Assembly: GCA_030647355.1 (NCBI GenBank)
Contig: JAUSIS010000005.1
Span: 1 to 60,893 of the forward strand
DNA from: a bacterium
Lineage (GTDB): Bacteria > Patescibacteriota > UBA1384 > VFKW01
Direction: 5' to 3'
Length of the DNA stretch: 60,893 nt
The notes under the pieces were generated by a model. That model saw only the letters and a list, made by a program, of their open reading frames with translations, did not search any database and was not told where the DNA came from. Below, piece by piece: positions 36,813 to 60,893 of the stretch; position 1 is the first letter of the stretch; every line of letters starts with the position of its first letter. The position numbers and the translations under genes are program-made.

Positions 36813-39656
36813 TTACTTGATAACCGCTTTTTGGTTTTTGAGAACTGGTTTCAAAAAATTACCGGTATATGATTCCTTGATTTGAGCTACTTCTTCCGGT
36901 GTACCAACTGCCACGATCTTACCACCCTCGTCGCCTCCATCAGGACCCATATCAATCAGCCAATCAGCCGATTTTATCACATCCAAATTATGTTCGATTA
37001 CTAAAACCGTATTACCTTTTTCCACCAATTGCTGGATGACATTTAATAGTCGCTTAATGTCTTCAAAATGAAGACCGGTAGTCGGCTCATCCAAAATATA
37101 CAAAGTCCGTCCCGTATCATGGCGCATCAATTCAGTCGCCAGCTTTATCCTCTGCGCCTCACCACCCGATAAAGTTGTTGCCGGCTGTCCCAATTTCACA
37201 TAACCTAAACCGACCGAGGAGAGCATCTGCAACTTCTCTGCCAGTTGCTCTTCCGACTTGAAAAATTCCAATGCCTCATCCACAGTCATGTCTAAAATTT
37301 GAGCAATATTCTTATTTTTATAGTGTATTTCTAATGCTTCTTTATTATATCTCTGCCCCTTGCACTCTTCGCAGGTAACATAGATATCGGGTAAAAAATG
37401 CATCTCAATCTTAATAACTCCATCTCCTCGGCACGCTTCGCACCGCCCGCCACGCAGATTAAAACTGAAATGTCCAGCTTCAAAATTATGTTTCAAAGCA
37501 TCGTTGGTAGACGCAAATAATTCCCGAATCGGACCGAATATTCCTGTATAAGTTGCCGGATTAGATCTCGGAGTTCGCCCGATAGGGGTCTGATCAATAT
37601 TGATAACTTTATCCAGATTCTCTAGCCCCAAAATTGCCTCATGCTTACCTGGGGTTTCTTGCGCCCTGTGAAAATGTGCCGATAGGGCTTTGGCTAAGAT
37701 ATCCTCAACTAAGGTTGATTTTCCAGAACCAGATACACCTGTTACGCAGACAAATCTATTTAAAGGAATCTCGACAGTTATATTTTTCAAATTAAATTCT
37801 GAAGCTCCCTTAATCGTCAAAAAATCATTTGCTTTGCCGCGCCTCTTTGTCGGAATACTGATCTCTTTCTTGTCCGATAAATACTGACCAGTAAGAGAAT
37901 TCTCATTTGCCATAACTTCTTCCGGGGTTCCAATCGCAACCACCTTCCCCCCATGTTCACCGGCTCCCGGTCCTATATCAATTATATAGTCCGCCTTGCG
38001 CATGGTCTGTTTATCATGTTCAACCACAATAACCGTGTTGCCTATGTCTTTTAACGTAAAAAGCGTTTTAAGTAGTTTTTCATGATCTTTCGGATGCAAA
38101 CCGATGGATGGCTCGTCCAAAATATAGATAACTCCAGTCAACCCGGATCCCAGTTGTGTGGCAAGGCGTATTCTCTGCGCCTCTCCCCCTGCTAATGTCG
38201 AAGCATTGCGGTCAAGCGACAAATATGACAAACCAACATCAATTAAGAATTTCAGTCTGACGCTGATCTCTTTTATAATCTGACTGGAAATAATTTTCTG
38301 TTGTGCAGTTAATTTATTACTGTTTGTTAGATTATTAAAGAAAATAGAACTCTCTTTAATAGTCATCGCATTGACTTCAACTATATTCTTCTCGGCAATA
38401 GTGATGCCGAGAACCTCTTTTCTAAGCCGATGTCCTTCGCAAGTAGTACAAACCTTCTCCACCATATATTTTTCTATTTCTTGTCTTAAATAATCCGAAT
38501 CTGTGTCTTGAAAACGTCGTTCCAAGTTTGGAATAACGCCTTCAAACCTCTCACCTTCCTCCACTGGTTCCCCATATAACACAATATCCACAATCTCCCG
38601 AGATAGTTCGCCCACTGGCAGATCCAAGCTGAATTTATGTTTATTTGAAAGTTGGCTAAGTACTTTATTGTACCAGTTGCTATGGCTGGTAGTTCTGCTC
38701 CATGGTCTAATAGCTCCTTCGGCGATTGTAAGTCTAGGATTAGGTAGAACCAGTTCCGGATCAACGACCAAACGAATTCCCAGCCCTTGGCAAACTGGAC
38801 ACGCACCCTGCGGGCTGTTAAATGAAAATAACCTTGGCTCTATTTCTGGCAATGATTTTCCACAACTACTACACACATACAATTTTGAATATAAAGTTTC
38901 TTCATTAGAATTTTCATCCAAAAAATACAATGTCCCGCCACCCAATTCCAAGCCAGTATTAATACTTTTGGCAATCTTATTAACAAGTTCCAGGTCTTCT
39001 TCAAAAAATTCCTTTACTGTAAAAGTATCAATAATTCCATCAATTGAATGCCCTTTTTGCTTATCAACCTCTAGGCTTAATGCTTCCTCGGTATCCATGA
39101 CGGTGCCATCGTAACGTACTTTGGAAATCTTGGCTTTAGCTAACAATTTTAACTGGTGTTTATGCTCGCCTCTCCTGTCCTTAATAACAGGGGCAATTAA
39201 CGAAAACTTAATATCTCTCTTGCCCTTAATTGTGCTTAATATCTTCTGTAATATTTCTTCGGGTGTCTGTTTTCCAACTACCGTGCCGCAATCAGGACAA
39301 TGAGGCAGCCCCACTCTCGCAAAAAGTAATCTTAAATAATCATAAATTTCCGTAATTGTACCAACGGTAGATCGGCGATTTCTGGTAGCTGATTTTTGAT
39401 CAATGGAAATAGCCGGTGACAACCCTTCAATATAATCAACATCCGGTTTTTCGAGTACACCCAAAAATTGGCGAGCATAGCTAGATAAGCTCTCCACATA
39501 ACGTCTTTGTCCCTCGGCAAATATAGTGTCAAATGCCAGCGAGGATTTCCCGGACCCGGAAAGTCCGGTAATAACTGTTAGTTTATTACGAATAATATCT
39601 ACCGATATATTCTTTAGGTTGTGAACCCTTGCCCCGACGACGCGAATCTTATCCAT
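36813..39656 (-). CDS. uvrA: excinuclease ABC subunit A
   Basis: 947 aa. Two ABC ATPase modules ([18 protein letters not shown]) and zinc-finger Cys clusters. Confidence 0.97.
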
Positions 39657-39812
39657 TCGAGCTAGCTCCCTTAAGTTGACGCAAGTAGTATAACATAATT
39701 ATGTACAATGTACAAGATGCCATAGTGGGATATTTACACTCAGCTCTTGTCTTTCTAAGATAAATACCATAAAATTATATAAGATGTTACCAGCTAACCC
39801 AAGGAGGGAATC

Positions 39813-49099: not shown

Positions 49100-49149
49100 G
49101 ACTCAAATATATTTAATACTAATAGCAAGCATCTAGCTTGTATTCTTGG

Positions 49150-49222
49150 GGTGAGCGAAGGGAATCGAACCCTCAACCACTTCGGCCACAGCGAAGCGCT
49201 CTGCCATTGAGCTACGCCCACC
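49150..49222 (-). tRNA. tRNA-His (anticodon GTG) with genome-encoded G-1
   Basis: Acceptor GTGGGCG/CGCTCAC with an extra 5' G opposite C73. The anticodon loop is CTGTGGC. Confidence 0.85.
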
Positions 49223-50477: not shown

Positions 50478-51221
50478 ATGCTATCACAATCACCAGCATA
50501 CAAAAGGCACATGCAAAACCTGCAAAATGAAATTGATGCCAAAAATTTACATGAACTGCAAAAACTCGATCTTTTTAATGAAAAAACTTTTTATCGCGCT
50601 TTTATCCGGGACATACTTGAAGCAAAGAAAGAGATAGTTATTTACAGCCCCTTTGTGACTAAATTCAGATCTGAATTTTTCAGGAAAACATTAGAAACGC
50701 TTAAAAGAAGAAATATCGCTCTCTTTATATTTACCCGTCCGCTTGAAGAGCACGAATACTTAATGAGAGCTGAAATTAAATGCGCCTTAAAAGATTATGA
50801 GGAGATGGGAGCTTGTATTTTCTATCTCCAAGGGTCGATTCATGAAAAAGTGGCTATCATTGATAGAGCAATTCTTTGGGAAGGAAGTTTAAATATTCTT
50901 TCGCAAAGGGAAAGTAAGGAAATGATGAAAAGAATGGCCAACGAAGATATGGCTATGCAAGTCATGTCTTATCTTGGGTTAAACGAAAAACTGGCCGAAG
51001 GTTACAAATTCCAATATGAGAGGTTGTATAGAAGCTTAGTTGAGAATTCAAGATTTAATTTTAAAGTCAAAATTAAGGAATTTCTTACAGAAATTGCAGT
51101 TCCAAAATTGGCCAAGATACCATTCATTGTATCAAGGGCTATAATATCCTTATTCCAAGGGATTATGGTAATTATAAAATTGATAATCTTATTATCTATC
51201 AAACTTCTAACTAGATTTTGA
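50478..51221 (+). CDS. PLD-like (single HKD motif) nuclease/phosphodiesterase family protein with C-terminal TM helix
   Basis: HEKVAIIDRAILWEGSLN (HxK..D...GS.N) is present. The C-terminus is a hydrophobic helix. An RBS (GAGGAGG) lies upstream. Confidence 0.65.
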   Translation: MLSQSPAYKRHMQNLQNEIDAKNLHELQKLDLFNEKTFYRAFIRDILEAKKEIVIYSPFVTKFRSEFFRKTLETLKRRNIALFIFTRPLEEHEYLMRAEIKCALKDYEEMGACIFYLQGSIHEKVAIIDRAILWEGSLNILSQRESKEMMKRMANEDMAMQVMSYLGLNEKLAEGYKFQYERLYRSLVENSRFNFKVKIKEFLTEIAVPKLAKIPFIVSRAIISLFQGIMVIIKLIILLSIKLLTRF

Positions 51222-51426
51222 GATCTTTGATTTTTAGAGCCTTCTTAACTTTCTGCAGTTTTTCAACCGAAGGGTTTACTTCGCCCCGCTCCATTTGAGC
51301 ATAATAGTTAGTGCTAACATCGGATGCTTCGGCAACTTCTAATTGAGTTAAGTTAGCTTTTTCTCGAGCTTTTCTTAACTGATTGCCAAGATCTGTCAGT
51401 TTTATGTTTTCTTTATTGTTTGTCAT
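51211..51426 (-). CDS. XRE-family HTH transcriptional regulator
   Basis: LGNQLRKAREKANLTQLEVAEASDVSTNYYAQMERGEVNPS. Confidence 0.8.
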   Translation of the reverse strand: MTNNKENIKLTDLGNQLRKAREKANLTQLEVAEASDVSTNYYAQMERGEVNPSVEKLQKVKKALKIKDLKI

Positions 51427-51619
51427 GTTTTTTTGACTCCAAAACAGCAAGGAGCTGTTTTAGCCATTCTTCCTTGCCAAGCTCGTCTATCAATCGCGAG
51501 TTAACTTCGATCCATTTTTCTTTGGTAACCATTAGTTCATGTTTGGATATAAGATCGGGCGATATGTTGATTGCATAATATGGGTTAATAAATAACTCTT
51601 TAGTTTCTTGTTTGTTCAT
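51413..51619 (-). CDS. small hypothetical protein overlapping the XRE gene (possible toxin or partner)
   Basis: 68 aa. It overlaps the downstream HTH gene by 14 nt. Confidence 0.4.
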   Translation of the reverse strand: MNKQETKELFINPYYAINISPDLISKHELMVTKEKWIEVNSRLIDELGKEEWLKQLLAVLESKKHDKQ

Positions 51620-51762
51620 AAATTATTTCCTATTATTGGATTATTGACTCTTGCCGATAATATAGCATATTTCGTATCAAAAAACCAGATTTAAAAATTT
51701 ATAACTGATAAATATATAGATAAAATATTGCAAACATAAACATAATCGTCTACACTAAAAAT

Positions 51763-53751
51763 ATGAGCGATGCATATTTTGGAAATAAATCGGTTGCTAT
51801 CTATCAAAGACGATACTTAGGTTCTAAAACTAAGTTACTTGATTTCGTAGAAAGTATTTTGGAATCTGAGAAAATATCATTTAAATCTTTTGCCGACATC
51901 TTCGCTGGAACTGGTTCTGTTGCAAATCGTTTCTACGGAAAAGCAAATATCGTAGTAAATGATATTTTAGATTCTAACCACTATATCTTCAAAGCGTTTT
52001 TTGGCGATGAAAAAATCAGAGAAGAAAAATTACTTGTTAGGTTAAAAACCTACAACAATCTGGATATAAATAAATATGGCAAAAATTATTTTTCTGAAAA
52101 CTTCTCAAACACATATTTTGATGCAAAAAATGCTAAAAAAATTGGAGTGATTAGAGATGATATTGAAAAACTATTTGAGGAGAAAATAATTAACGAACGA
52201 GAAAAATCATATCTCTTAACCTCTCTAATCTATGCTCTTGATAAAATCGCTAATACTGTCGGTCATTACGATGCTTATAGGAAAATAGAAATTAATGATA
52301 AAAAATTGTTTTTATTGCCATTAGATCTTCCACATTCAAAGTATCACGCAGAAATCTATAAAGATGATGCAAATAATCTCGTAAAGCATATCAAGGCAGA
52401 TGTCGTTTATATTGACCCACCTTATAATTCACGGCAATACTCAGATGCTTATCATTTACTTGAAAACATTGCCACTTGGAAAAAAGAAGAAGTTTTTGGT
52501 GTTGCCAAAAAAATTGACCGCTCACATATCAAGAGTCAATACAGTATGAAATCGGCTGCGATAGCATTCGGTGATTTAATTGACAGTATCAACGCAAAAT
52601 ATATTCTTGTTTCTTATAACGATATGGGGTCATCTGGAAATGGACGCTCTCAGTCAAAAATTAGCGACCACGAGATATTATCTGCCTTAAAACGAAAAGG
52701 CGAAGTTAAAATCTTTTACAAAGATTTTAAGCAATTCACAACCGGCAAATCCTGCAAAGATGATCTAAAAGAAAGAATCTTTTTATGTAAAGTAGCGAAT
52801 AATATAAAGACAAAGAAATCTGTTATCGCTTCAAAGCAAAATCCAGTTCAAAGCGGTTTTGTGAAATCACCATTGAATTACACTGGTGGTAAGCACAAAC
52901 TATTACCACAAATAACAAATTATTTTCCAAACGAAATAAAGACCTTCTACGATGTTTTTTCAGGCGGAGCAAATGTCGGCATAAATGCAAAAGCAGAAAA
53001 TATAATTTGCATTGAAAAAAATAAATATGTAGTCAATTTATTAAAATTTATTCAAGGTAATAATTTTGAAGATCTTAATCAGAAAATCTTGGATATTATT
53101 GACGAGTTTAATTTAAGCCAAAGTTACATCAAGGGCTATGATTATTATGGTGCCGAAAGTTGTATTGGACTTGGAAAATATAACAAAGATAAATTCTTGG
53201 CACTAAGAAGTGAGTTCAATAAAGATAAATCAAGAATTGATCAATTATTGGTGCTTATTTTATATTCTTTCAATAACCAAATTCGTTTTAACTCTAACGG
53301 TGATTATAACTTACCTGTCGGGAAACGCGATTATAATGGCAGTTCAAGAAAAAATGTTTTAGCATTTAACCAAATCTCGAACGAGAAGAAAATAAACTTT
53401 AAGATCTCCGATTTCAGAAATCTTGAAAAAATGAATTTGAATGAAAATGATTTCTTCTATTTAGACCCTCCATATCTTTTGGGACTTGCCAGTTATAATG
53501 AATTGGGTGGCTGGACGGAGCAAGATGAAAACGATTTATATTCTCTACTCTCACGACTAAATAAGAAGAAGATTAAATTCGCATTATCAAATGTTTTAGA
53601 GCATAAGGGCGAAACAAATGAAATAATGAAAAAATGGGCTGTAAAAAATAATTTTAAGATAAATAAACTGAACTATAGTTATAAAAATTCAAATTATCAC
53701 TCTTCTGCAAAAAACAATCAGACCATTGAAGTCCTGATTACAAACTACTGA
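51763..53751 (+). CDS. fused double N6-adenine DNA methyltransferase (two Dam/D12-class domains)
   Basis: Domain 1: RYLGSKTKL, FAGTGSV, IDPPY. Domain 2: NYTGGKHKL, FSGGANV, LDPPY. Confidence 0.85.
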   Translation: MSDAYFGNKSVAIYQRRYLGSKTKLLDFVESILESEKISFKSFADIFAGTGSVANRFYGKANIVVNDILDSNHYIFKAFFGDEKIREEKLLVRLKTYNNLDINKYGKNYFSENFSNTYFDAKNAKKIGVIRDDIEKLFEEKIINEREKSYLLTSLIYALDKIANTVGHYDAYRKIEINDKKLFLLPLDLPHSKYHAEIYKDDANNLVKHIKADVVYIDPPYNSRQYSDAYHLLENIATWKKEEVFGVAKKIDRSHIKSQYSMKSAAIAFGDLIDSINAKYILVSYNDMGSSGNGRSQSKISDHEILSALKRKGEVKIFYKDFKQFTTGKSCKDDLKERIFLCKVANNIKTKKSVIASKQNPVQSGFVKSPLNYTGGKHKLLPQITNYFPNEIKTFYDVFSGGANVGINAKAENIICIEKNKYVVNLLKFIQGNNFEDLNQKILDIIDEFNLSQSYIKGYDYYGAESCIGLGKYNKDKFLALRSEFNKDKSRIDQLLVLILYSFNNQIRFNSNGDYNLPVGKRDYNGSSRKNVLAFNQISNEKKINFKISDFRNLEKMNLNENDFFYLDPPYLLGLASYNELGGWTEQDENDLYSLLSRLNKKKIKFALSNVLEHKGETNEIMKKWAVKNNFKINKLNYSYKNSNYHSSAKNNQTIEVLITNY

Positions 53752-53771
53752 TTTTATGGTATAATGGGATT

Positions 53772-55583
53772 ATGTTAAAAGCTTGGTCAATTACTACAAC
53801 TGTGCGAAATCCTGAGAGACTTCGTGATTTTTTGATCGCCCTGAAACCACTTGTAAATCAAGAGTGGGACAACAACAATCAAAAAAATTATCAGAAACTT
53901 CTTATCAAATATCGGCTGTATGGTTATGGAAACCAGCAATTTTATAGTGGTTTGCCAACCGAAATTGTTAAATTGATAAATAATATTGATTCTGAGATAT
54001 CAGATGAAATTGTTGATAAAATCATTGAAGTTAAAAATTATAAAGACTTCGCTATGCGAGGTCGCCAATCAATAAATCCGCTTACAAAATTTGGGTTTGC
54101 TCTAATAGACGACGGTATCCTGAGGATTACTGACCTTGGTCAAAAACTTATAGAAAGCGAAAAAGATTCTGGAGATGCCTTCCTTAAATCATTTATCAAG
54201 TGGCAAATACCGAATCCTGCAAATAAGGACTTTCCCGAAAACGAGAAGTATAACATCGTGCCATTTGTCGCTACATTGAAGTTAATTGACGAAGTTAATA
54301 AAATTGAAACTGCGAGAAATCAAAACGCAAAAGGTTTGAGCAAACGAGAGTTTTCTTTATTCGCCCCCTCCTTAATTGATTTTAACGATATTGAGAAATA
54401 CGCAGAAGAAATTGTTAATTTACGAGATTCACAAGTTGATAAAACCAAACAAGAACGAAAAGAAATTAGAGATCGTTATAGATTCAAGTTTGCAAGATCA
54501 TTTTTAGATACCACAGACCAAATTGAGATTGATAAGTTTTTGAAAAACTTAAAAGATTATGGCGACAATGCGATAAGATATTTTCGTCTAACGAAATTCA
54601 TAAGAATTCGTGGTGGCGGTTTTTATGTAGATTTAGAGCCAAACCGTCATATTGAAATAAGTTCATTGTTTGAAAATGAATTTTATAAACCAAAAGCCTT
54701 TGCCGATAAATCAGATTACTTGCAATATATGTCGGATGATACACTACCACAATTACCTTGGCTAACAAAGAAAAAATTAACTGATATCGTAAATAACATT
54801 TACGAAGAAATCGTTTCTCTGGAAAACGAACTCAATAAAGGAATAGCTCCACAAGAAGATGTCACAAATTACAACGAAAATCAGTTAGTTATTTATATCG
54901 AAAACTTGCGAAATTATCGCAAAGACCTGCAAGAACAAGATAACCATATTAAATCGCAGCCAGTAGAAGCAATCAACGGATGTATCTCACAGTTAGACAA
55001 GATTTTTGAATTAGAAAATCGTCCATTAATGTTAGAATATTTATCATCAATGGGCTTGCACGCACTAAACGATGCAAGAGAGATTAAGCCAAATTACCCA
55101 GTCGGTGATGATAATGAGCCAACATCGACTGCCTCAGGCGGTTTAGCCGATATAGAATGTTATTACAGTGATTTCAATATGATATGCGAGGTAACAATGT
55201 TAAATAGTCGTGACCAATGGTTTAACGAAGGGCAACCAGTTATGAGGCACTTGCGAGATTTTGAGAATCAAAACACAAACGCTCATTGTCTATTTATTGC
55301 CCCGACGATACATACGGACACAGCAGAAACATTTTGGATTGCTAACATACATGGGTACAAGGGAAGTACGCAAAGTATTGCCCCGATTACAATCAAACAA
55401 TTTATTGGTCTACTAAAAACGCTAAAAACACTTCGTGAATCTGGCAAAAACTTCACACACGACAATTTGCTGAAATTAGTTAAAACAATTTCCAATAGTG
55501 CGAGTGTAAAAGCAGATTCAGATAATTGGGTCAATAATATCCAAAACATTATAAATGCGTGGAGCGTGGAATTAATGAGATAA
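53772..55583 (+). CDS. type IIS restriction endonuclease, AlwI-family-like
   Basis: The N-terminal WSITTTVRNPERLRDF and RGRQSINPLTKFGFALIDDGILRITDLG resemble the AlwI/PleI/MlyI/N.BstNBI family as I recall it. It is adjacent to a two-domain methylase, as expected for an asymmetric recognition site. Confidence 0.55.
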   Translation: MLKAWSITTTVRNPERLRDFLIALKPLVNQEWDNNNQKNYQKLLIKYRLYGYGNQQFYSGLPTEIVKLINNIDSEISDEIVDKIIEVKNYKDFAMRGRQSINPLTKFGFALIDDGILRITDLGQKLIESEKDSGDAFLKSFIKWQIPNPANKDFPENEKYNIVPFVATLKLIDEVNKIETARNQNAKGLSKREFSLFAPSLIDFNDIEKYAEEIVNLRDSQVDKTKQERKEIRDRYRFKFARSFLDTTDQIEIDKFLKNLKDYGDNAIRYFRLTKFIRIRGGGFYVDLEPNRHIEISSLFENEFYKPKAFADKSDYLQYMSDDTLPQLPWLTKKKLTDIVNNIYEEIVSLENELNKGIAPQEDVTNYNENQLVIYIENLRNYRKDLQEQDNHIKSQPVEAINGCISQLDKIFELENRPLMLEYLSSMGLHALNDAREIKPNYPVGDDNEPTSTASGGLADIECYYSDFNMICEVTMLNSRDQWFNEGQPVMRHLRDFENQNTNAHCLFIAPTIHTDTAETFWIANIHGYKGSTQSIAPITIKQFIGLLKTLKTLRESGKNFTHDNLLKLVKTISNSASVKADSDNWVNNIQNIINAWSVELMR

Positions 55584-55663
55584 AATTATGAGTGATGAAA
55601 TTGATATGTATTTCAATCGATTTAATAGGAAATAAAAATCGTCGAAAATAAAAAAAGAAAGAT

Positions 55664-56269
55664 GTGATGAATGATACCGAACAACTAAAGGATGAGATTT
55701 ATGATTATATACTTTTTAGTCAGGCACTTTGTAAGAAAGCGAAAGATATAATTAACAATATAAATGTGAATGATCCACGAGAGATTAAAAACAAACTCGA
55801 TTATGCCAACAACACCAATATTTATTTTCTTAAACTTGTTGCGAATTTATTTATTAGCCAATGCATAATTGAATTAGGGACTTTGCTGGACAAAAAAGAT
55901 GCAAGACAAAAATCCCTTTATCAGCTGATCACAGTGGATGAATATAAAACAAAACCTAAAATAATTGATTATTTGAACCAAATACATTCTAATTTCGGTG
56001 CCAAAAGACTATGGGCAATTAGACATCAGTTTGTTGCCCATCATTCAAAAAACAGCAAGGGTGGTCCGACATCGATCATTTTTAGCACATACAAGGGTGA
56101 ATATATTCAAAGTTGCGAAGACATTATTGAAGAAATAATAAATTTTTGGAAGGAACATATAGGATATGGTCCGGGTAACAACATGTTTATCGATAAGCTC
56201 GAATCCGTTGACGGCATTGCTGACCAACTTATCAAAACTGCCAAAAACCCGAGGGAGTCAAGAAATTGA
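55664..56269 (+). CDS. HEPN-domain protein (AbiU2-like), Rx5H motif IRHQFVAH
   Basis: 201 aa. It is predicted all-alpha, with an R-x5-H motif in the C-terminal half. Confidence 0.55.
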   Translation: MMNDTEQLKDEIYDYILFSQALCKKAKDIINNINVNDPREIKNKLDYANNTNIYFLKLVANLFISQCIIELGTLLDKKDARQKSLYQLITVDEYKTKPKIIDYLNQIHSNFGAKRLWAIRHQFVAHHSKNSKGGPTSIIFSTYKGEYIQSCEDIIEEIINFWKEHIGYGPGNNMFIDKLESVDGIADQLIKTAKNPRESRN

Positions 56270-56943
56270 ATAAAAACGACATAGTTAATGAGATTACGAC
56301 GAGAGTAGATTTCGCAATAGCGGACTCTAATACATATTTATACGCAAAATGTCAGCCAACATTGGAAGCCGATATGAATCAAGTTTCAATTGGTGGCGGT
56401 AATTTTAACATCTTACTTGCGTCAGTTTCCGTGCTTGACCTTCTCGCACAGGTTAATGCGTTGGTAGATGGAACTGAAGCAGACTTTTGGCAAGCTAAAG
56501 AATTGTTACAGATTAAAGAAGAGCGAAAAAAGATAACTAAAAAATTTCAAAGATATTTTAATGTCCCCAAAATTGGAGATTTCAAAAACACAGGCAAGGA
56601 AAGATTTCTTAAACTATTATCTCAAACAGCATCACTAACAGGCTTAACAACCGAGCAAGCCAAAGAAATATACGAGATTAGAAATAAAATTGTACATTGT
56701 TTTAGCCCAAAAATCAGACCTGCGGCGGCCTTACCAATAATGCCAGGCCGTGATTTTGCATCGTTAATTAAATCATATATTTCAATACCAGTTTTTTGCC
56801 AAACTACAGACAATAGAACGGGTATAGATTCTAATGCTTTAAGTCATAAATTAGGGGTCATTTCTCTATATGTTATTCGTAAAATTGAAAAATCTACGGA
56901 TGATAAAATTTCTCAAATAGCCCAATGGTTCGAAAATAATTAA
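56266..56943 (+). CDS. HEPN-domain protein, Rx4H motif IRNKIVH
   Basis: 225 aa. Its TTG start overlaps the upstream stop codon (TTGA), which suggests translational coupling. Confidence 0.55.
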   Translation: MNKNDIVNEITTRVDFAIADSNTYLYAKCQPTLEADMNQVSIGGGNFNILLASVSVLDLLAQVNALVDGTEADFWQAKELLQIKEERKKITKKFQRYFNVPKIGDFKNTGKERFLKLLSQTASLTGLTTEQAKEIYEIRNKIVHCFSPKIRPAAALPIMPGRDFASLIKSYISIPVFCQTTDNRTGIDSNALSHKLGVISLYVIRKIEKSTDDKISQIAQWFENN

Positions 56944-57238: not shown

Positions 57239-57517
57239 ATGAAAATAAAATCTTTGAAATATGTATTAGGAGAATTGGTATTTTACATTATATTTTGGCT
57301 GGTTGGAGTCGGACTTTTTTGGGGGTTAATTCTGCTTTGTCAGGAAAAGTTTCATTACAGTGTCGATTGGCAATTAGCGTTAATATGGTCTATTGTTCCT
57401 GGTTATATTTGGTTTATTATCGGGACACTTTTAACATGGAAGGATGACAAGATTGCCGAGGGTCGTAAGGCTATAACTGACGCTGTAGCAAAATTGTTTA
57501 GAGAAAAACCACTTTAA
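57239..57517 (+). CDS. small two-TM membrane protein
   Basis: 92 aa with two hydrophobic helices. Confidence 0.55.
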   Translation: MKIKSLKYVLGELVFYIIFWLVGVGLFWGLILLCQEKFHYSVDWQLALIWSIVPGYIWFIIGTLLTWKDDKIAEGRKAITDAVAKLFREKPL

Positions 57518-57528
57518 TACTACTCCAC

Positions 57529-57744
57529 TTAATTTTCATTTAAATCAAAATTGATCGTTTTGTTGACTACTTTAATTCTTCCCTCATCTTCAAGCGCTTT
57601 ATAGGCGTCTTGGAAGGAAATACGTTTGTCTTTCGTCAGTTTAATTAATGCGTGATAGAGTGTTAGCGGAACCTCAAAACCATCGGCTTTCATTTTTTTA
57701 TACCACTCGCTAGTTGTTTCAAATTTATTTGTATCCATATCCAC
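57529..57744 (-). CDS. small hypothetical protein downstream of the Ubl operon
   Basis: 71 aa, helical, no recognised motif. Confidence 0.4.
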   Translation of the reverse strand: MDMDTNKFETTSEWYKKMKADGFEVPLTLYHALIKLTKDKRISFQDAYKALEDEGRIKVVNKTINFDLNEN

Positions 57745-57855
57745 AGTATAACATCTTTAGATTATAACGAAAAAAGCAAAGGTAATAAATTATGAAAGAC
57801 CTGCCACAATTAGACCGACAACAACTAAATAAATAGCGGGAAGTGATACTATTTT

Positions 57856-58239
57856 TTATCTTTTGAACCATCTGATTACTTTTGACCAATAGCTATCTTT
57901 TTTCTTGGCATAGTATCTCTCTTTATTTAAGAGGTCTTGGCGCCTACCGGCTTCGATTTCAATATCGGACCATTTCTTGGCCCAAACCATCTGATTGTTC
58001 CTTATCCAATAGTGTGATTGGCATTTGAAGTTCCAATTCCCAATCGAAGGTGAAAGAGAAATAGTTTTGCCATCAAAGGCTAACTGCCAATCTGTCGGCG
58101 AAAAGGGTGTTATAACTTCTTCTTGACAACCACAAAAACACTTGTGAATCGCCGTACTGTATTTCAGAGATATATAAATGACATCATCGTCTAGTTGTCT
58201 TGGTATCTGCTCTACAAATTTATGAGTTATAATCTTCAT
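57856..58239 (-). CDS. Cys/His zinc-finger protein (DUF6527-like)
   Basis: HKCFCGC...FKCQSHYW (CxCxC + CxxH). It overlaps the E1 gene by 20 nt. Confidence 0.6.
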   Translation of the reverse strand: MKIITHKFVEQIPRQLDDDVIYISLKYSTAIHKCFCGCQEEVITPFSPTDWQLAFDGKTISLSPSIGNWNFKCQSHYWIRNNQMVWAKKWSDIEIEAGRRQDLLNKERYYAKKKDSYWSKVIRWFKR

Positions 58240-59401
58240 TGAATAATTTTCCGTCGTTCATTGAATATATTGTATTAAACTCCTTGGAACGATCTTGATA
58301 AAAACCAGATATTTTTTTCCATTTCATCACGGATAGTGTTGCACTTAGAGCATTAATATCGGCTATCTGAATGTTTGTCACATAATCATCTGCGGCCGTT
58401 TTCTCTGCAAAGGATATCCTCTTATTAATGTGATCTCTTTTGTCTGCAGTGCTTGAAGTAACCCTGACATGACCCAGGATAGAATCGTTTGCTGTTAATA
58501 ATCCGATACCAGCATCAACAAAAGATATTTGTTTTGCAATTAAGTGATTAATAATTTGTCTCTTAGCCGTACCTTTATCCATAGCGATAAACACAAAACT
58601 CATTCCAGACAATTCGTCAATCTTTTCAGCGGTTATATTATAGCTATGAGAATGTATATTCTTGTGCATATTTGCGTAAATGCTTTGGAAATAATCAGTT
58701 TTTTTATTTACTTCGGTTAGCTTCTCAGCAGGTGGAGCGCCGGGCGATCTGAAGGCATTGTGATTCAATAGAACGTCTTCATCAAACAAGTGGATTTCTT
58801 GTATGGGAGTTTTCGCGATCAGGTCTAATATATACGAGCCAGTTCCACCTAGACCAACAATAGCTACTTTTTGCCCCTCCAGTTTCTTCGTTATCGCGTT
58901 TATCTTACCCCTACTAATATTAGTATCTGGATAGTTGAAAACAGAACCACTATCAGGGATATTAATATCCTTAAATGGTTTCTCAGTAACGGATTTATTT
59001 AAAGCCCTAGCTTCCGCCGATATTATATTGGCGTAGTTAGACATTTTATGGGAGTAGTCTTTATATCCTTCAGCGGGTTTGTTAGAGAAGGAGTGGTTAA
59101 TGATTATACCTCCCATTTGCGTATCTTGGCTTCCGCTGTGGATTCCTTTTATGGGACTTCCGTCCTTATAACAAGGCAGTTCGCCTGCCCAATAAGCCAC
59201 ATGTTGGCTTATTGGGCTATTCGTATTATCTCCGGCAATTGAGGTTAAATCCGAGACTAATGTTCCATATTGAATCTGACAGCTTGAATCTACATATGGT
59301 ATTTCATAAAGCAGGAGACAATCTTCAACGATTGCCACCGCATAACCTTCGTCCATTAACCGCTTAAGGTCTGGATTACGATTTATCTGTTCTTGTGGCA
59401 T
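58220..59401 (-). CDS. ThiF/E1-like adenylyltransferase fused to an N-terminal E2(UBC)-like domain
   Basis: Rossmann motif VAIVGLGGTGSYILD, plus FDEDVLLNHNAFRSPG. There is no Cys in the adenylation domain. The N-domain has HVAYWAGELPC, with the same H-to-C spacing (+10) as HPN....G.IC in UBC folds. Confidence 0.7.
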   Translation of the reverse strand: MPQEQINRNPDLKRLMDEGYAVAIVEDCLLLYEIPYVDSSCQIQYGTLVSDLTSIAGDNTNSPISQHVAYWAGELPCYKDGSPIKGIHSGSQDTQMGGIIINHSFSNKPAEGYKDYSHKMSNYANIISAEARALNKSVTEKPFKDINIPDSGSVFNYPDTNISRGKINAITKKLEGQKVAIVGLGGTGSYILDLIAKTPIQEIHLFDEDVLLNHNAFRSPGAPPAEKLTEVNKKTDYFQSIYANMHKNIHSHSYNITAEKIDELSGMSFVFIAMDKGTAKRQIINHLIAKQISFVDAGIGLLTANDSILGHVRVTSSTADKRDHINKRISFAEKTAADDYVTNIQIADINALSATLSVMKWKKISGFYQDRSKEFNTIYSMNDGKLFNEDYNS

Positions 59402-59651
59402 TGAAGATCATTTCCTTTTTAACTTTCACCTCGTCGCCCTTTACCATTGTACCCTCATCCGGATTATCTCCCTTACTGTAGGATACCGTGTAGACAATAT
59501 TTTCATTGTCTTCATAGGTGCCGAAAGCGAGTTCGATTACCTGCTGAAAAGTAATTCTTTTACCAGTGAATTGCTCTTCTCTTCCGTTTACGATAATCGT
59601 GACGGGTTTTTCGTTACCTTGTCCTTCGTGTTTGTCTTCTTGGTTGGCCAT
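59376..59651 (-). CDS. ubiquitin-like beta-grasp protein (Multiubiquitin-family, single domain)
   Basis: VTIIVNGREEQFTGKRITFQQVIELAFG...YTVSYSKG...MVKGDEVKVKKEMIFNATRTDKS matches the multiubiquitin-domain pattern. The start ATG has an AAGGAG RBS. It overlaps the E1 gene by 26 nt. Confidence 0.65.
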   Translation of the reverse strand: MANQEDKHEGQGNEKPVTIIVNGREEQFTGKRITFQQVIELAFGTYEDNENIVYTVSYSKGDNPDEGTMVKGDEVKVKKEMIFNATRTDKS

Positions 59652-59685
59652 AATAGCTCCTTTCATAATGTTTATCGCTCACTAA

Positions 59686-60306
59686 CTAATCTAGAATCGG
59701 CGGAAGCACCTCGACCACTACTCCCTGGATTCTAAAATCTCTTGTTAAGACTATTGGTTTATGTTCCTTATTCGTTGAACGGGGTAAAAGGATATAAGCT
59801 CTCGGCGTTATAAATAACTCTTTTATAGTTGCTTCATCATCTATTAAGGCTACAACTCTTTCACCACTACGGGCTGTTTCCTGTTGCCGGATTAAAACAA
59901 AATCCCCGTCATTTATTCCGCTTAAATTCATTGAGTCGCCATGTGCCTTAAGCATAAAGTATTTATACGGTGGATGGGCAATTTTGCTGGAAACAGGTAT
60001 CAAGGCTTCAATATTCTCAACTGCCAAAACCGGAGCACCACAAGCCACACTTCCGACCAAAGGAATGTTTATAGTTGCGGTTCTGTCTTTTTCTTCAAAA
60101 TTATCAGTTACTTGGAGCGATCCGTTGGCTTTTTTCTTAACGAATCCTTTTTTTATAAGGCTTTCAATAGTTAGGGCGGCAGATCTGGGGGAACTATACC
60201 CCAGTGCCTTCATTAATTGTCGCACCGAAGGAGAAGTACCATTTTGTAAAATAGCATTTCTAATTTCTTTTAGGGCTAAAATTTCTTTTGGGTTTAATAT
60301 GTTCAT
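59686..60306 (-). CDS. lexA: LexA-like S24 peptidase repressor
   Basis: N-terminal wHTH (SPSVRQLMKALGYSSPRSAALTIESLIKKG). Cleavage-site region VACGAP. Catalytic GDSM Ser and IKEL Lys. The start is taken at MNILNPKE. Confidence 0.85.
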   Translation of the reverse strand: MNILNPKEILALKEIRNAILQNGTSPSVRQLMKALGYSSPRSAALTIESLIKKGFVKKKANGSLQVTDNFEEKDRTATINIPLVGSVACGAPVLAVENIEALIPVSSKIAHPPYKYFMLKAHGDSMNLSGINDGDFVLIRQQETARSGERVVALIDDEATIKELFITPRAYILLPRSTNKEHKPIVLTRDFRIQGVVVEVLPPILD

Positions 60307-60367
60307 ACATACACTATAATACACTAAACATACAGTTGTCAATACCTTGCTAAAAATATACTTGTTT

Positions 60368-60476
60368 CCTCCCGCCAGTCTTCCCATCTTATAATTGTAT
60401 AGCAATTTCGGAATTTCCAAAGGAAATATAATTGCATGGCAATTTCGGAATTTTCGAAGAAAATATAGAACAAATA
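60368..60476. repeat. dispersed repeat R, copy 3 (with internal duplication of the aattgcaWWgcaatttcggaattt module)
   Basis: It matches R1 end to end, apart from a 39-nt internal duplication. It lies 60-170 nt upstream of the lexA-like gene. Confidence 0.85.
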
Positions 60477-60595
60477 TTTACGAGATAATGATTTTATCAT
60501 TAAAAGACAATCGAAACGAATAGAATATTATTGACTCTCAATTACTTTAGCCAGAGTTTGTAATTCTTTTTTGACTGATTTATCGAAAAAATATT

Positions 60596-60893
60596 TCATA
60601 AAAAACCAAATCGCCCGACTTTTTTACCAAGTTTTGGAATATCACCCGACCAATCAATACGTGTTCCTTCAGGAACTTCGACAAATTCCAAATGGTCATG
60701 AATTATTGAACCATCATCGATAATTACTTGCTCTTCTGCTTCGTACGGTTTAACTTTTCCAATAATCAAAGCTTTAAATTTTATTCCAAAATAGCTAACT
60801 TCGCATTCCCATTTAGTTGTATCACCTACTTTTGATACAACTTTGCCTGTTTTCCAAGATTTTGACCATTTGGAAATATTTTCATAATTTGTT
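60596..60893 (-). CDS. SRPBCC-like small protein, N-terminus outside the window, possible frameshift at the 3' end
   Basis: The manual translation is ...SKWSKSWKTGKVVSKVGDTTKWECEVSYFGIKFKALIIGKVKPYEAEEQVIIDDGS...IDWSGDIPKLGKKVGRFGFL*. A helix-like tail (MKYFFDKSVKKELQTLAKVIESQ) continues in another frame after a T6 run. Confidence 0.4.
   Translation of the reverse strand, partial: TNYENISKWSKSWKTGKVVSKVGDTTKWECEVSYFGIKFKALIIGKVKPYEAEEQVIIDDGSIIHDHLEFVEVPEGTRIDWSGDIPKLGKKVGRFGFL

Follow-up and report, generated by a model that had tools for sequence, protein, structure and literature searches.

The closest described relatives of the gene series analyzed here, which lies on the minus strand of a 60,893-nt bacterial contig (JAUSIS010000005.1, assembly GCA_030647355.1; the whole stretch is called the window below), are the bacterial ubiquitination-like (Bub) operons, the name under which two 2024 preprints from the Corbett laboratory placed the former '6E/DUF6527' neighborhoods. 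One of these preprints (Ye, Gong, Chambers and Corbett; bioRxiv 10.1101/2024.11.21.623953) describes BubA-BubBD-BubE of E. coli ZDHYS365, and a 2026 EMBO J paper cites the Bub work as Ye et al. 2026. A Type II Bub operon (6E.2) encodes BubA, a ubiquitin-like protein (Ubl); BubBD, an E2-E1 fusion; and BubE, a DUF6527 protein, usually without a JAB peptidase (bioRxiv 10.1101/2024.11.21.623953). According to the same preprint, the E1 and the E2 both lack catalytic cysteines, and the Ubl passes through an oxyester with a Tyr on the E1 crossover loop and an oxyester with a Ser on the E2; R219A, Y342F and S106A in E. coli BubBD each abolish the formation of BubA-BubA conjugates. BubE is described there as a novel serine protease that has a C4 zinc site along with a Ser-His dyad and removes BubA-target conjugates, and DUF6527 was found to cleave BubA fusions in a Ser/His-dependent manner. 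Crystal structures of Citrobacter BubCD and its complexes have been in the PDB from September 2025. CapW, CapH+CapP or CapK+CapS, all of them responsive to DNA damage, accompany known Bub operons (bioRxiv 10.1101/2024.11.21.623953; 2026 EMBO J paper). LexA is mentioned in neither of these two texts, both of which we searched for it. An initial annotation of the window had considered its system not functionally characterized, which the Bub biochemistry and structures published in 2024-2026 overturn; the core system itself is already characterized, and what is new here is its association with LexA.

Five tightly packed minus-strand open reading frames (ORFs) occupy positions 57529-60306 in the ORF map of the window (Table 1), and the map confirms the coordinates given earlier as well as the spacing: a gap of 34 nt between lexA and bubA, overlaps of 26 nt (bubA/bubBD) and 20 nt (bubBD/bubE), and a gap of 111 nt between bubE and a 71-aa ORF. 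The initial annotation had proposed an operon for Ubl conjugation that combines an E2-E1 fusion with a beta-grasp Ubl, together with the profile searches that could support it, and all of these were positive. BubA matches Multi_ubiq (PF14452) at 5.6e-16, BubBD matches DUF6791 at 2.8e-48 (residues 10-160) and ThiF at 4.2e-12 (residues 171-299), and BubE matches DUF6527 (PF20137), a family that bears the label BubE in precomputed annotations, at 7.5e-25; BubBD also matches NCBIfam PRK06153.1-4 with 499 bits, against a cut-off of 352. Based on the matching gene set, Pfam families, catalytic residues, BubA terminus and gene order, we identify the core trio, from its sequence, as a typical Type II Bub operon, bubA-bubBD-bubE. 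With the E. coli Type II system it shares the three genes and their order, the overlapping frames and the Pfam families, and also the E2 Ser/Lys/His residues, the adenylation Arg, the crossover Tyr, the C4/Ser/His set of BubE, the TDKS end of BubA and the lack of a JAB peptidase. The two systems differ in BubA, which consists of one beta-grasp domain here (91 aa) and of three in E. coli (222 aa), and in host lineage, the window coming from an uncultured bacterium whose nearest named LexA relatives belong to Omnitrophota and Elusimicrobia metagenome-assembled genomes (MAGs), whereas Type II Bub was characterized in E. coli. They also differ in the upstream regulator, LexA in the window as opposed to CapW, CapH+CapP or CapK+CapS at known Type II Bub operons.

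We propose, and consider probable, that the locus joins the Type II Bub oxyester pathway to LexA/SOS control of a lexA-bubA-bubBD-bubE transcript. The Bub steps of this proposal are taken from the E. coli and Citrobacter experiments and carried to the window via conserved residues; the regulatory steps are drawn from the anatomy of the locus and from comparative genomics. A LexA dimer is expected to sit on TGTAT repeats over the -10 box and the start site of its own promoter. DNA damage or phage replication would give rise to RecA filaments, LexA would cleave itself at Cys89-Gly90 via Ser125 and Lys162, and the lexA-bubA-bubBD-bubE transcript should rise after this cleavage. A BubBD homodimer would then adenylate the C-terminal carboxylate of BubA (...TDKS) at its ThiF-type site with Arg218. 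BubA would likely be transferred as an oxyester to Tyr340 on the crossover loop, from there to Ser106 of the fused E2-like domain with the aid of Lys108 and His67, and finally to an amine on the target protein. BubE, a protease presumably stabilized by zinc, would cleave BubA-target conjugates and so act as a negative regulator of the deubiquitinase kind.

The regulator at the head of the series is predicted to be a standard, cleavage-competent LexA. It matches Peptidase_S24 (3e-27) and LexA_DNA_bind in Pfam and scores 142 bits against NCBIfam TIGR00498, whose equivalog cut-off is 111. Across 24 aligned sequences of the clade, neither the Cys89-Gly90 cleavage site nor Ser125 or Lys162 varies, and Omnitrophota and Elusimicrobia MAGs contain relatives at ~60% identity under the name 'repressor LexA'. 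A Cys-Gly bond is also the cleavage site of UmuD.

Just before the lexA ATG lies the site TTGACA-18-TATAGT (60342-60313; 11 of 12 consensus matches), the sole minus-strand sigma-70-like site that a consensus scan finds in 57300-60893. No terminator-like site was found on the minus strand across the operon, and between lexA and bubE the scan, which is crude and covers promoters of the sigma-70-like type only, shows neither a promoter-like nor a terminator-like site on that strand. The repeats TGTATG-N5-TGTATT-N4-TGTATG (60334-60309) overlap this -10 box and stop 2 nt short of the ATG; the exact arrangement GTGTAT-N4-GTGTAT occurs once in the window, at this promoter. Alignment of 84 lexA upstream regions of the clade gives the same picture: TTGACA is followed by two, sometimes three, TGTAT(A/G)(C/T) repeats ~10 nt apart, which extend over the -10 box and leave 2 nt to the ATG, and at several loci the repeats form a perfect 18-bp palindrome, TGTATACAATTGTATACA. 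At 42 of 78 loci, the 32 nt immediately preceding lexA contain a two-repeat motif, compared with 15 of 3900 random 32-mers (0.4%). We propose that these repeats are a candidate LexA operator, the LexA box of the lineage. Because the promoter leaves no room for a Shine-Dalgarno sequence before the ATG, the lexA mRNA is probably leaderless. The promoter would be autoregulated and would also drive the genes behind lexA; SOS-driven co-transcription of lexA and the Bub genes is likely. Across the window the looser motif TGTAT-N5-TGTAT with at most one mismatch occurs 9 times against 4.5 expected, and is not clearly enriched. In the promoter region of uvrA (gene 36813-39656; region 39690-39730, minus strand), TTGTACATTGTACA lies over the -35 position; its TGTACA repeat may be a variant LexA site or due to chance. 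Upstream of dinB we found no clear TGTAT repeat. Upstream of the lexA promoter, at 60390-60463, there is a 37-nt tandem direct repeat in two copies 86% identical, whose units start with TATAAT (plus strand) and include a TGTATA/TGCATG element; L084, a related lexA locus described below, has the 3' part of this tandem repeat as well.

A scan of the genome collection with BubBD alone found no relative, and an alignment-based scan did. The 80 Bub loci considered here come from named genomes and MAGs (45-67% identity) and span Bacteroidota, Cyanobacteria, Firmicutes, Verrucomicrobiota, Chloroflexota, Nitrospira, Planctomycetota and two archaeal MAGs. The gene arrangement is not due to chance, since the BubA-BubBD-BubE order is kept in essentially all of 81 related loci, as is the bubA/bubBD overlap, usually of 23 nt in the 80 genome loci. 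The nearest relative shares 67% identity in the genome collection and 81% among metagenome proteins. Of the two closest metagenomic relatives, L081 (BubBD 81% identical) begins Bub immediately behind the 3' end of a lexA that is 98% identical, and in L082 (BubBD 77% identical) the series lexA-bubA-bubBD-bubE is complete; past bubE, the window, L081 and L082 each have different genes. The next relative, L083 (BubBD 65% identical), has no LexA. A further lexA-linked Bub operon, L144, retains the terminal Ser of BubA, and because its BubBD is only 40% identical to that of the window, the LexA-Bub linkage has arisen at least twice. Five further BubBD homologues (L171-L175, 32-47% identity) lie on IMG/VR contigs classed as viral, a classification that places some Bub operons in phages or prophages.

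Bub is one of several kinds of genes found behind lexA in this clade. Behind the lexA of L084 (LexA 88% identical) stands a complete operon of an antiphage signaling system based on cyclic oligonucleotides (CBASS), comprising a transmembrane effector, a CD-NTase and an E2. Other close LexA homologues are followed by paired D12 methyltransferases or a type IIG enzyme, and a DpnII restriction-modification system stands behind lexA in a 2.15-Mb Omnitrophota contig; behind the closest homologues the defense cargo is co-directional and 3-12 nt away. To broaden the comparison, 80 metagenomic loci of the clade were joined with six fetched earlier, and the resulting 86 lexA loci, a few of which are near-duplicates so that the independent number is somewhat lower, were gene-called, clustered and annotated. 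At 65 of the 86, no more than 200 nt separate the lexA stop from the start of a co-directional gene, and the distance is often -4 to +10 nt; for most of the other 21, too little sequence is available downstream. Restriction-modification or DNA methyltransferase systems make up the cargo at ~31 of the 65 loci, CBASS at 7, Bub at 2 (L082 and L144) and canonical SOS genes (recA or a Y-family polymerase) at 5; at 7 more the cargo is led by a DUF2188 protein, and at 13 it is of other or unknown kind. These counts are suggestive of variable defense cargo behind lexA in the clade. We tentatively propose, as a reading that may well hold but falls short of probable, that the chromosomal lexA heads a 'cargo slot', in which interchangeable defense systems are inserted a few bases after its stop codon and would be transcribed from the LexA-repressed leaderless promoter. 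A literature search found no description of a lexA-linked defense slot, which is not proof of absence.

The adjacency to lexA might instead be positional only, with an integration hotspot at this site and the Bub genes served by an unrecognized promoter of their own or regulated otherwise, free of SOS coupling. A hotspot would account for the many unrelated cargos at the same position in relatives and for the fact that the window and L084, which have the lexA promoter and its upstream flank in common, diverge exactly after the lexA stop codon; metagenome contigs often break beside lexA, and a consensus promoter scan as crude as ours leaves other promoter types outside its scope. We nevertheless regard a purely positional link as rather unlikely. 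The co-directional orientation of the cargo at the 65 loci and the short gaps are typical of operons and translational coupling, the stretch from lexA to bubE shows no promoter- or terminator-like site on the minus strand, and the occurrence of recA or a Y-family polymerase in the same slot at five loci shows that the slot is used for LexA-controlled genes.

It is also conceivable that this LexA is not the global SOS repressor but a cassette-borne one that travels with defense systems, as CapH+CapP and CapW do, while a housekeeping lexA lies elsewhere. Recognizable defense cargo directly downstream at ~60% of the sampled clade loci, and upstream neighbors that vary between loci, are what such a cassette would show. 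We consider this distinctly improbable, as the protein exceeds the NCBIfam equivalog cut-off for lexA and its surroundings are ordinary chromosome, the window carrying RNase P RNA, 8 tRNAs, argS, rny, fabF, uvrA and dinB. In addition, the flank common to the window and L084 combined with different cargo indicates that lexA stays and the cargo moves, and some clade members have recA or dinB behind lexA. The window LexA is probably the cell's own SOS repressor and not a dedicated module such as CapW, CapH+CapP or CapK+CapS. Those regulators follow the same logic, in that a repressor gene directly upstream of Bub, CBASS or restriction-modification operons is released on DNA damage; the difference is that the window regulator appears to be a canonical RecA-dependent LexA (S24), co-directional with the Bub genes and apparently on the same transcript.

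Returning to the proposal of a Bub oxyester pathway under LexA/SOS control, several points weigh against it. Every mechanistic step is assigned to the locus by homology, the case for co-transcription is built from spacing and simple consensus scans, and the proposed operator comes from motif inference. The other exact or near-exact copies of the TGTAT repeat in the window do not stand in front of uvrA or dinB, and the uvrA repeat, TGTACA-T-TGTACA, is related to the lexA repeats but has a different spacing. No LexA homologue lies within 6 kb at any of the 80 genome Bub loci (0/80), so that the lexA-Bub linkage is lineage-specific; the coupling to LexA put forward in the initial annotation is upheld for this locus, where Bub directly follows a cleavage-competent LexA and neither a promoter nor a terminator is predicted between the two, and does not extend to the family. 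On the biochemical side, the E2/UBC fold expected for the N-terminal domain of BubBD found no significant PDB match in Foldseek (the top one was the E2 Cdc34, E 0.35, TM 0.36), and the sequence profile of the domain matched no solved chain, Citrobacter BubB included. Finally, protection against phage by Bub has not been shown (2026 EMBO J paper), and an 'antiphage' role is a hypothesis for the whole Bub family.

A Bub operon wired to LexA predicts induction as part of the SOS response, which is directly testable and agrees with the three other damage-responsive regulators found beside Bub operons. If the cargo-slot reading is correct, the host RecA/LexA switch should directly set the expression of Bub and the other cargo. 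To the DNA-damage controls of Bub operons this would add a fourth class, in which the global SOS repressor is employed for the first time, and mitomycin C or lexA alleles would offer a simple handle on what Bub conjugation does. Should the genes be co-transcribed, the site after lexA would be a compact way of coupling many immune systems to DNA damage, and this position could serve guilt-by-association searches for new defense genes.

Turning to the conjugation enzyme, a search of 5.8 billion proteins yielded more than 5,800 relatives of BubBD with the DUF6791+ThiF architecture, of which 24 (51-81% identity) were aligned in window numbering. In the E2 part of this alignment, H67, S106 and K108 are invariant, Ser106 in the motif HSFSNKP being the putative active site; in the E1 part, whose nucleotide loop reads GLGGTGS, R218 and the crossover-loop Y340 are invariant. 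The 393-aa protein has three cysteines only, at positions 28, 41 and 77, so that, as noted earlier, the E1 is free of cysteine and all three lie in the N-terminal 80 aa. Cys77 (codon 59171-59173) is located in a GE(H/L)PC motif of the E2-like domain and is not strictly kept, some homologues having His or Arg instead. The initial annotation had built a thioester cascade on this residue, guided by the UBC-like HPN...C spacing of HVAYWAGELPC, with Cys77 as in-cis E2 acceptor, the zinc protein as an E3-like, targeting or effector component, and no deconjugating enzyme. In keeping with that scheme, C77 is ~90% conserved in the 24 sequences, His67 is invariant, and the weak top Foldseek matches of the N-domain are E2 enzymes. 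The scheme is nonetheless very improbable. C77 gives way to His in P0036 and L144, the latter keeping its HFSSKP serine motif, and to Arg in P0065, whereas S106, K108, H67 and Y340 are invariant and match the E. coli mutagenesis, in which S106A, Y342F and R219A abolish BubA-BubA conjugates; moreover, deconjugation by DUF6527 is Ser/His-dependent and that dyad is 100% conserved here. Cys77 is predicted not to be the catalytic residue.

The nearest solved relatives of the E1 domain are Citrobacter BubCD 9ea4/9ea5, both by sequence profile (1.7e-7) and by Foldseek (7.5e-12) with a confident AlphaFold2 model (predicted local distance difference test, pLDDT, 83.5); UBA5, ThiF and MccB rank after BubCD. 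A Foldseek search with full-length BubBD was dominated by E1 domain matches. The N-domain was modeled separately (pLDDT 86.8) and is predicted to consist of two N-terminal helices, a beta-meander ending at S106 and a long helix. The Type I Bub system of Citrobacter (BubAB-BubCD-BubE; 9ea4, 9ea5, 9ea8, 9eae, 9eav) has a homologous E1, the BubE protease and the Tyr/Ser oxyester chemistry in common with the window. In Type I, though, the Ubl and the E2 form one fusion, and a C-terminal Gly is exposed by a JAB peptidase that is itself fused to the E1, whereas the window has an E2-E1 fusion, lacks a JAB and has a Ubl whose terminal Ser needs no processing. Cap2 of Type II CBASS and Bil (BilABCD) are likewise E1/E2 protein conjugation systems of bacterial defense islands, and Cap2 is also an E2-E1 fusion, but both rely on JAB peptidases and on cysteines for catalysis, and the protein that Cap2 conjugates is the cyclase, not a Ubl. 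Membership in Cap2 or Bil was considered and rejected: the E1 has no Cys, Cys77 is not invariant and a JAB is lacking. The Cap2 'E1-E2' models of PADLOC cover only the Rossmann segment of BubBD (residues ~160-292, 1e-5 to 5e-9); PADLOC-DB 2.0.0 contains no Bub models, and it returned no match for BubA, BubE or LexA. Within bubBD, a 13-bp perfect inverted repeat (59187-59217) spans the PISQHVAYWAG codons, with a predicted mRNA hairpin of -24 kcal/mol; we rejected it as a regulatory element, the corresponding values in relatives being only -8 to -12 kcal/mol.

BubA is predicted to be a single beta-grasp ubiquitin-like protein of the Ubl1 type with a short, disordered N-terminus, and an AAAGGAG Shine-Dalgarno sequence precedes the ATG at 59651, giving the 91-aa protein. 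It aligns with the solved E. coli BubA (PDB 9cd2) at E 2.3e-9. Its C-terminus, ...FNATRTDKS, had been singled out in the initial annotation for lacking Gly-Gly. The sequence was read correctly but is no anomaly: the ending ...FNVTxT(D/N)KS, with a terminal Ser that never varies, is common to 79 of 79 BubA homologues of related loci, and the experimentally used 9cd2 shares the terminal ...TDKS, so that an end without Gly-Gly is the family norm. Type I BubA exposes a Gly, and the end ...FNVTxT(D/N)KS is nearly invariant across Type II BubA (L001-L083, L144, 9cd2). It is unusual for an E1 to adenylate a C-terminal Ser, and the wording 'C-terminal serine' is absent from the main text of bioRxiv 10.1101/2024.11.21.623953.

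The zinc protein is predicted to be BubE, a Ser65-His76 protease with a C4 zinc site. C34, C36, C38, C73, S65 and H76 are 100% conserved in 83 sequences from related loci and correspond to Citrobacter C57/59/61/99, S92 and H102; the C-terminal tail is basic and hydrophobic. The role of an E3 or effector suggested earlier gives way to that of a protease. The accompanying statement that the locus has 'no JAB or other deubiquitinase' is accurate as to JAB, which a Pfam search finds in none of the five proteins, and fails in its second half, because DUF6527 is the published BubE peptidase and the locus does carry a deconjugating enzyme. No solved relative of BubE was found, in line with the report by BubE's authors.

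A sulfur-carrier or cofactor module of ThiF/MoeB type, with the beta-grasp protein as a ThiS/MoaD-like carrier, was rejected and has next to no likelihood, since the ThiF fold, the weak ThiF and MoeB profile matches and the presence of ThiF-ThiS and MoeB-MoaD among the Foldseek matches are outweighed by NCBIfam scores of 11-34 bits against cut-offs of 150-450, a carrier that ends in Ser and not in Gly-Gly, the lack of a rhodanese/sulfurtransferase domain and of thiamine or molybdopterin genes nearby, contexts made up of defense islands and damage-responsive regulators, and homologues that carry out protein conjugation.

Table 1. Coordinates of the Bub locus and its neighbors in the window, and of related lexA loci on other contigs
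Feature	Position	Strand	Description
lexA	59686-60306	-	206 aa; winged helix-turn-helix and S24 autopeptidase domain
lexA promoter and candidate LexA operator	60309-60342	-	promoter scan and repeat motif
bubA	59376-59651	-	91 aa; start is second ATG of ORF 59376-59666
bubBD	58220-59401	-	393 aa; DUF6791+ThiF
bubBD, E2-like domain (DUF6791), residues 1-160	58922-59401	-	
bubBD, E1 adenylation domain (ThiF fold)	58220-58921	-	
bubE	57856-58239	-	127 aa; DUF6527
ORF 3' of bubE, 71 aa	57529-57744	-	doubtful; outside conserved unit
PLD-family nuclease, double D12 methyltransferase, AlwI-type endonuclease	50.5-55.6 kb	+	Pfam, PADLOC
lexA loci of the clade, surveyed for downstream cargo (related contigs)	L084:88-3050; L085:5001-7658; L087:4456-8335; L088:73-3135; L090:5001-8249; L091-L170		

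At the distal end of the series, the initial annotation had counted four or five operon genes. All five ORFs are present, but the 71-aa ORF is not conserved: tblastn finds no homologue in 88 related loci, there is no significant Pfam, NCBIfam, PADLOC or PHROGs match, and different genes occupy its position in the closest relatives, L081 and L082. Lacking a homologue or family match, it is doubtful as a part of the unit and is not treated as part of the system. PHROGs returned nothing for any small ORF, BubA or BubE.

The placement of the operon in a defense island is corroborated. Defense genes adjoin it on the opposite strand (50478-56269, plus strand; Pfam, PADLOC), among them a fused double D12 methyltransferase of 662 aa and an AlwI-type restriction endonuclease of 603 aa, together with a weak match to an AbiU2-like HEPN protein. 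From tRNA-His (49147-49221) to lexA, the Bub operon included, the island has a GC content of 0.31-0.34, compared with 0.38-0.45 elsewhere in the window. At the other end, a co-directional ORF upstream of lexA (60596-60893, minus strand; at least 98 aa, no NCBIfam match) runs off the contig end, and several related metagenome contigs likewise stop within 100-600 nt upstream of lexA, a sign that a repeat lies there or that strains vary at this point. The low-GC block on the plus strand (50478-56943) also holds a 225-aa protein of unknown function and two small predicted membrane ORFs.

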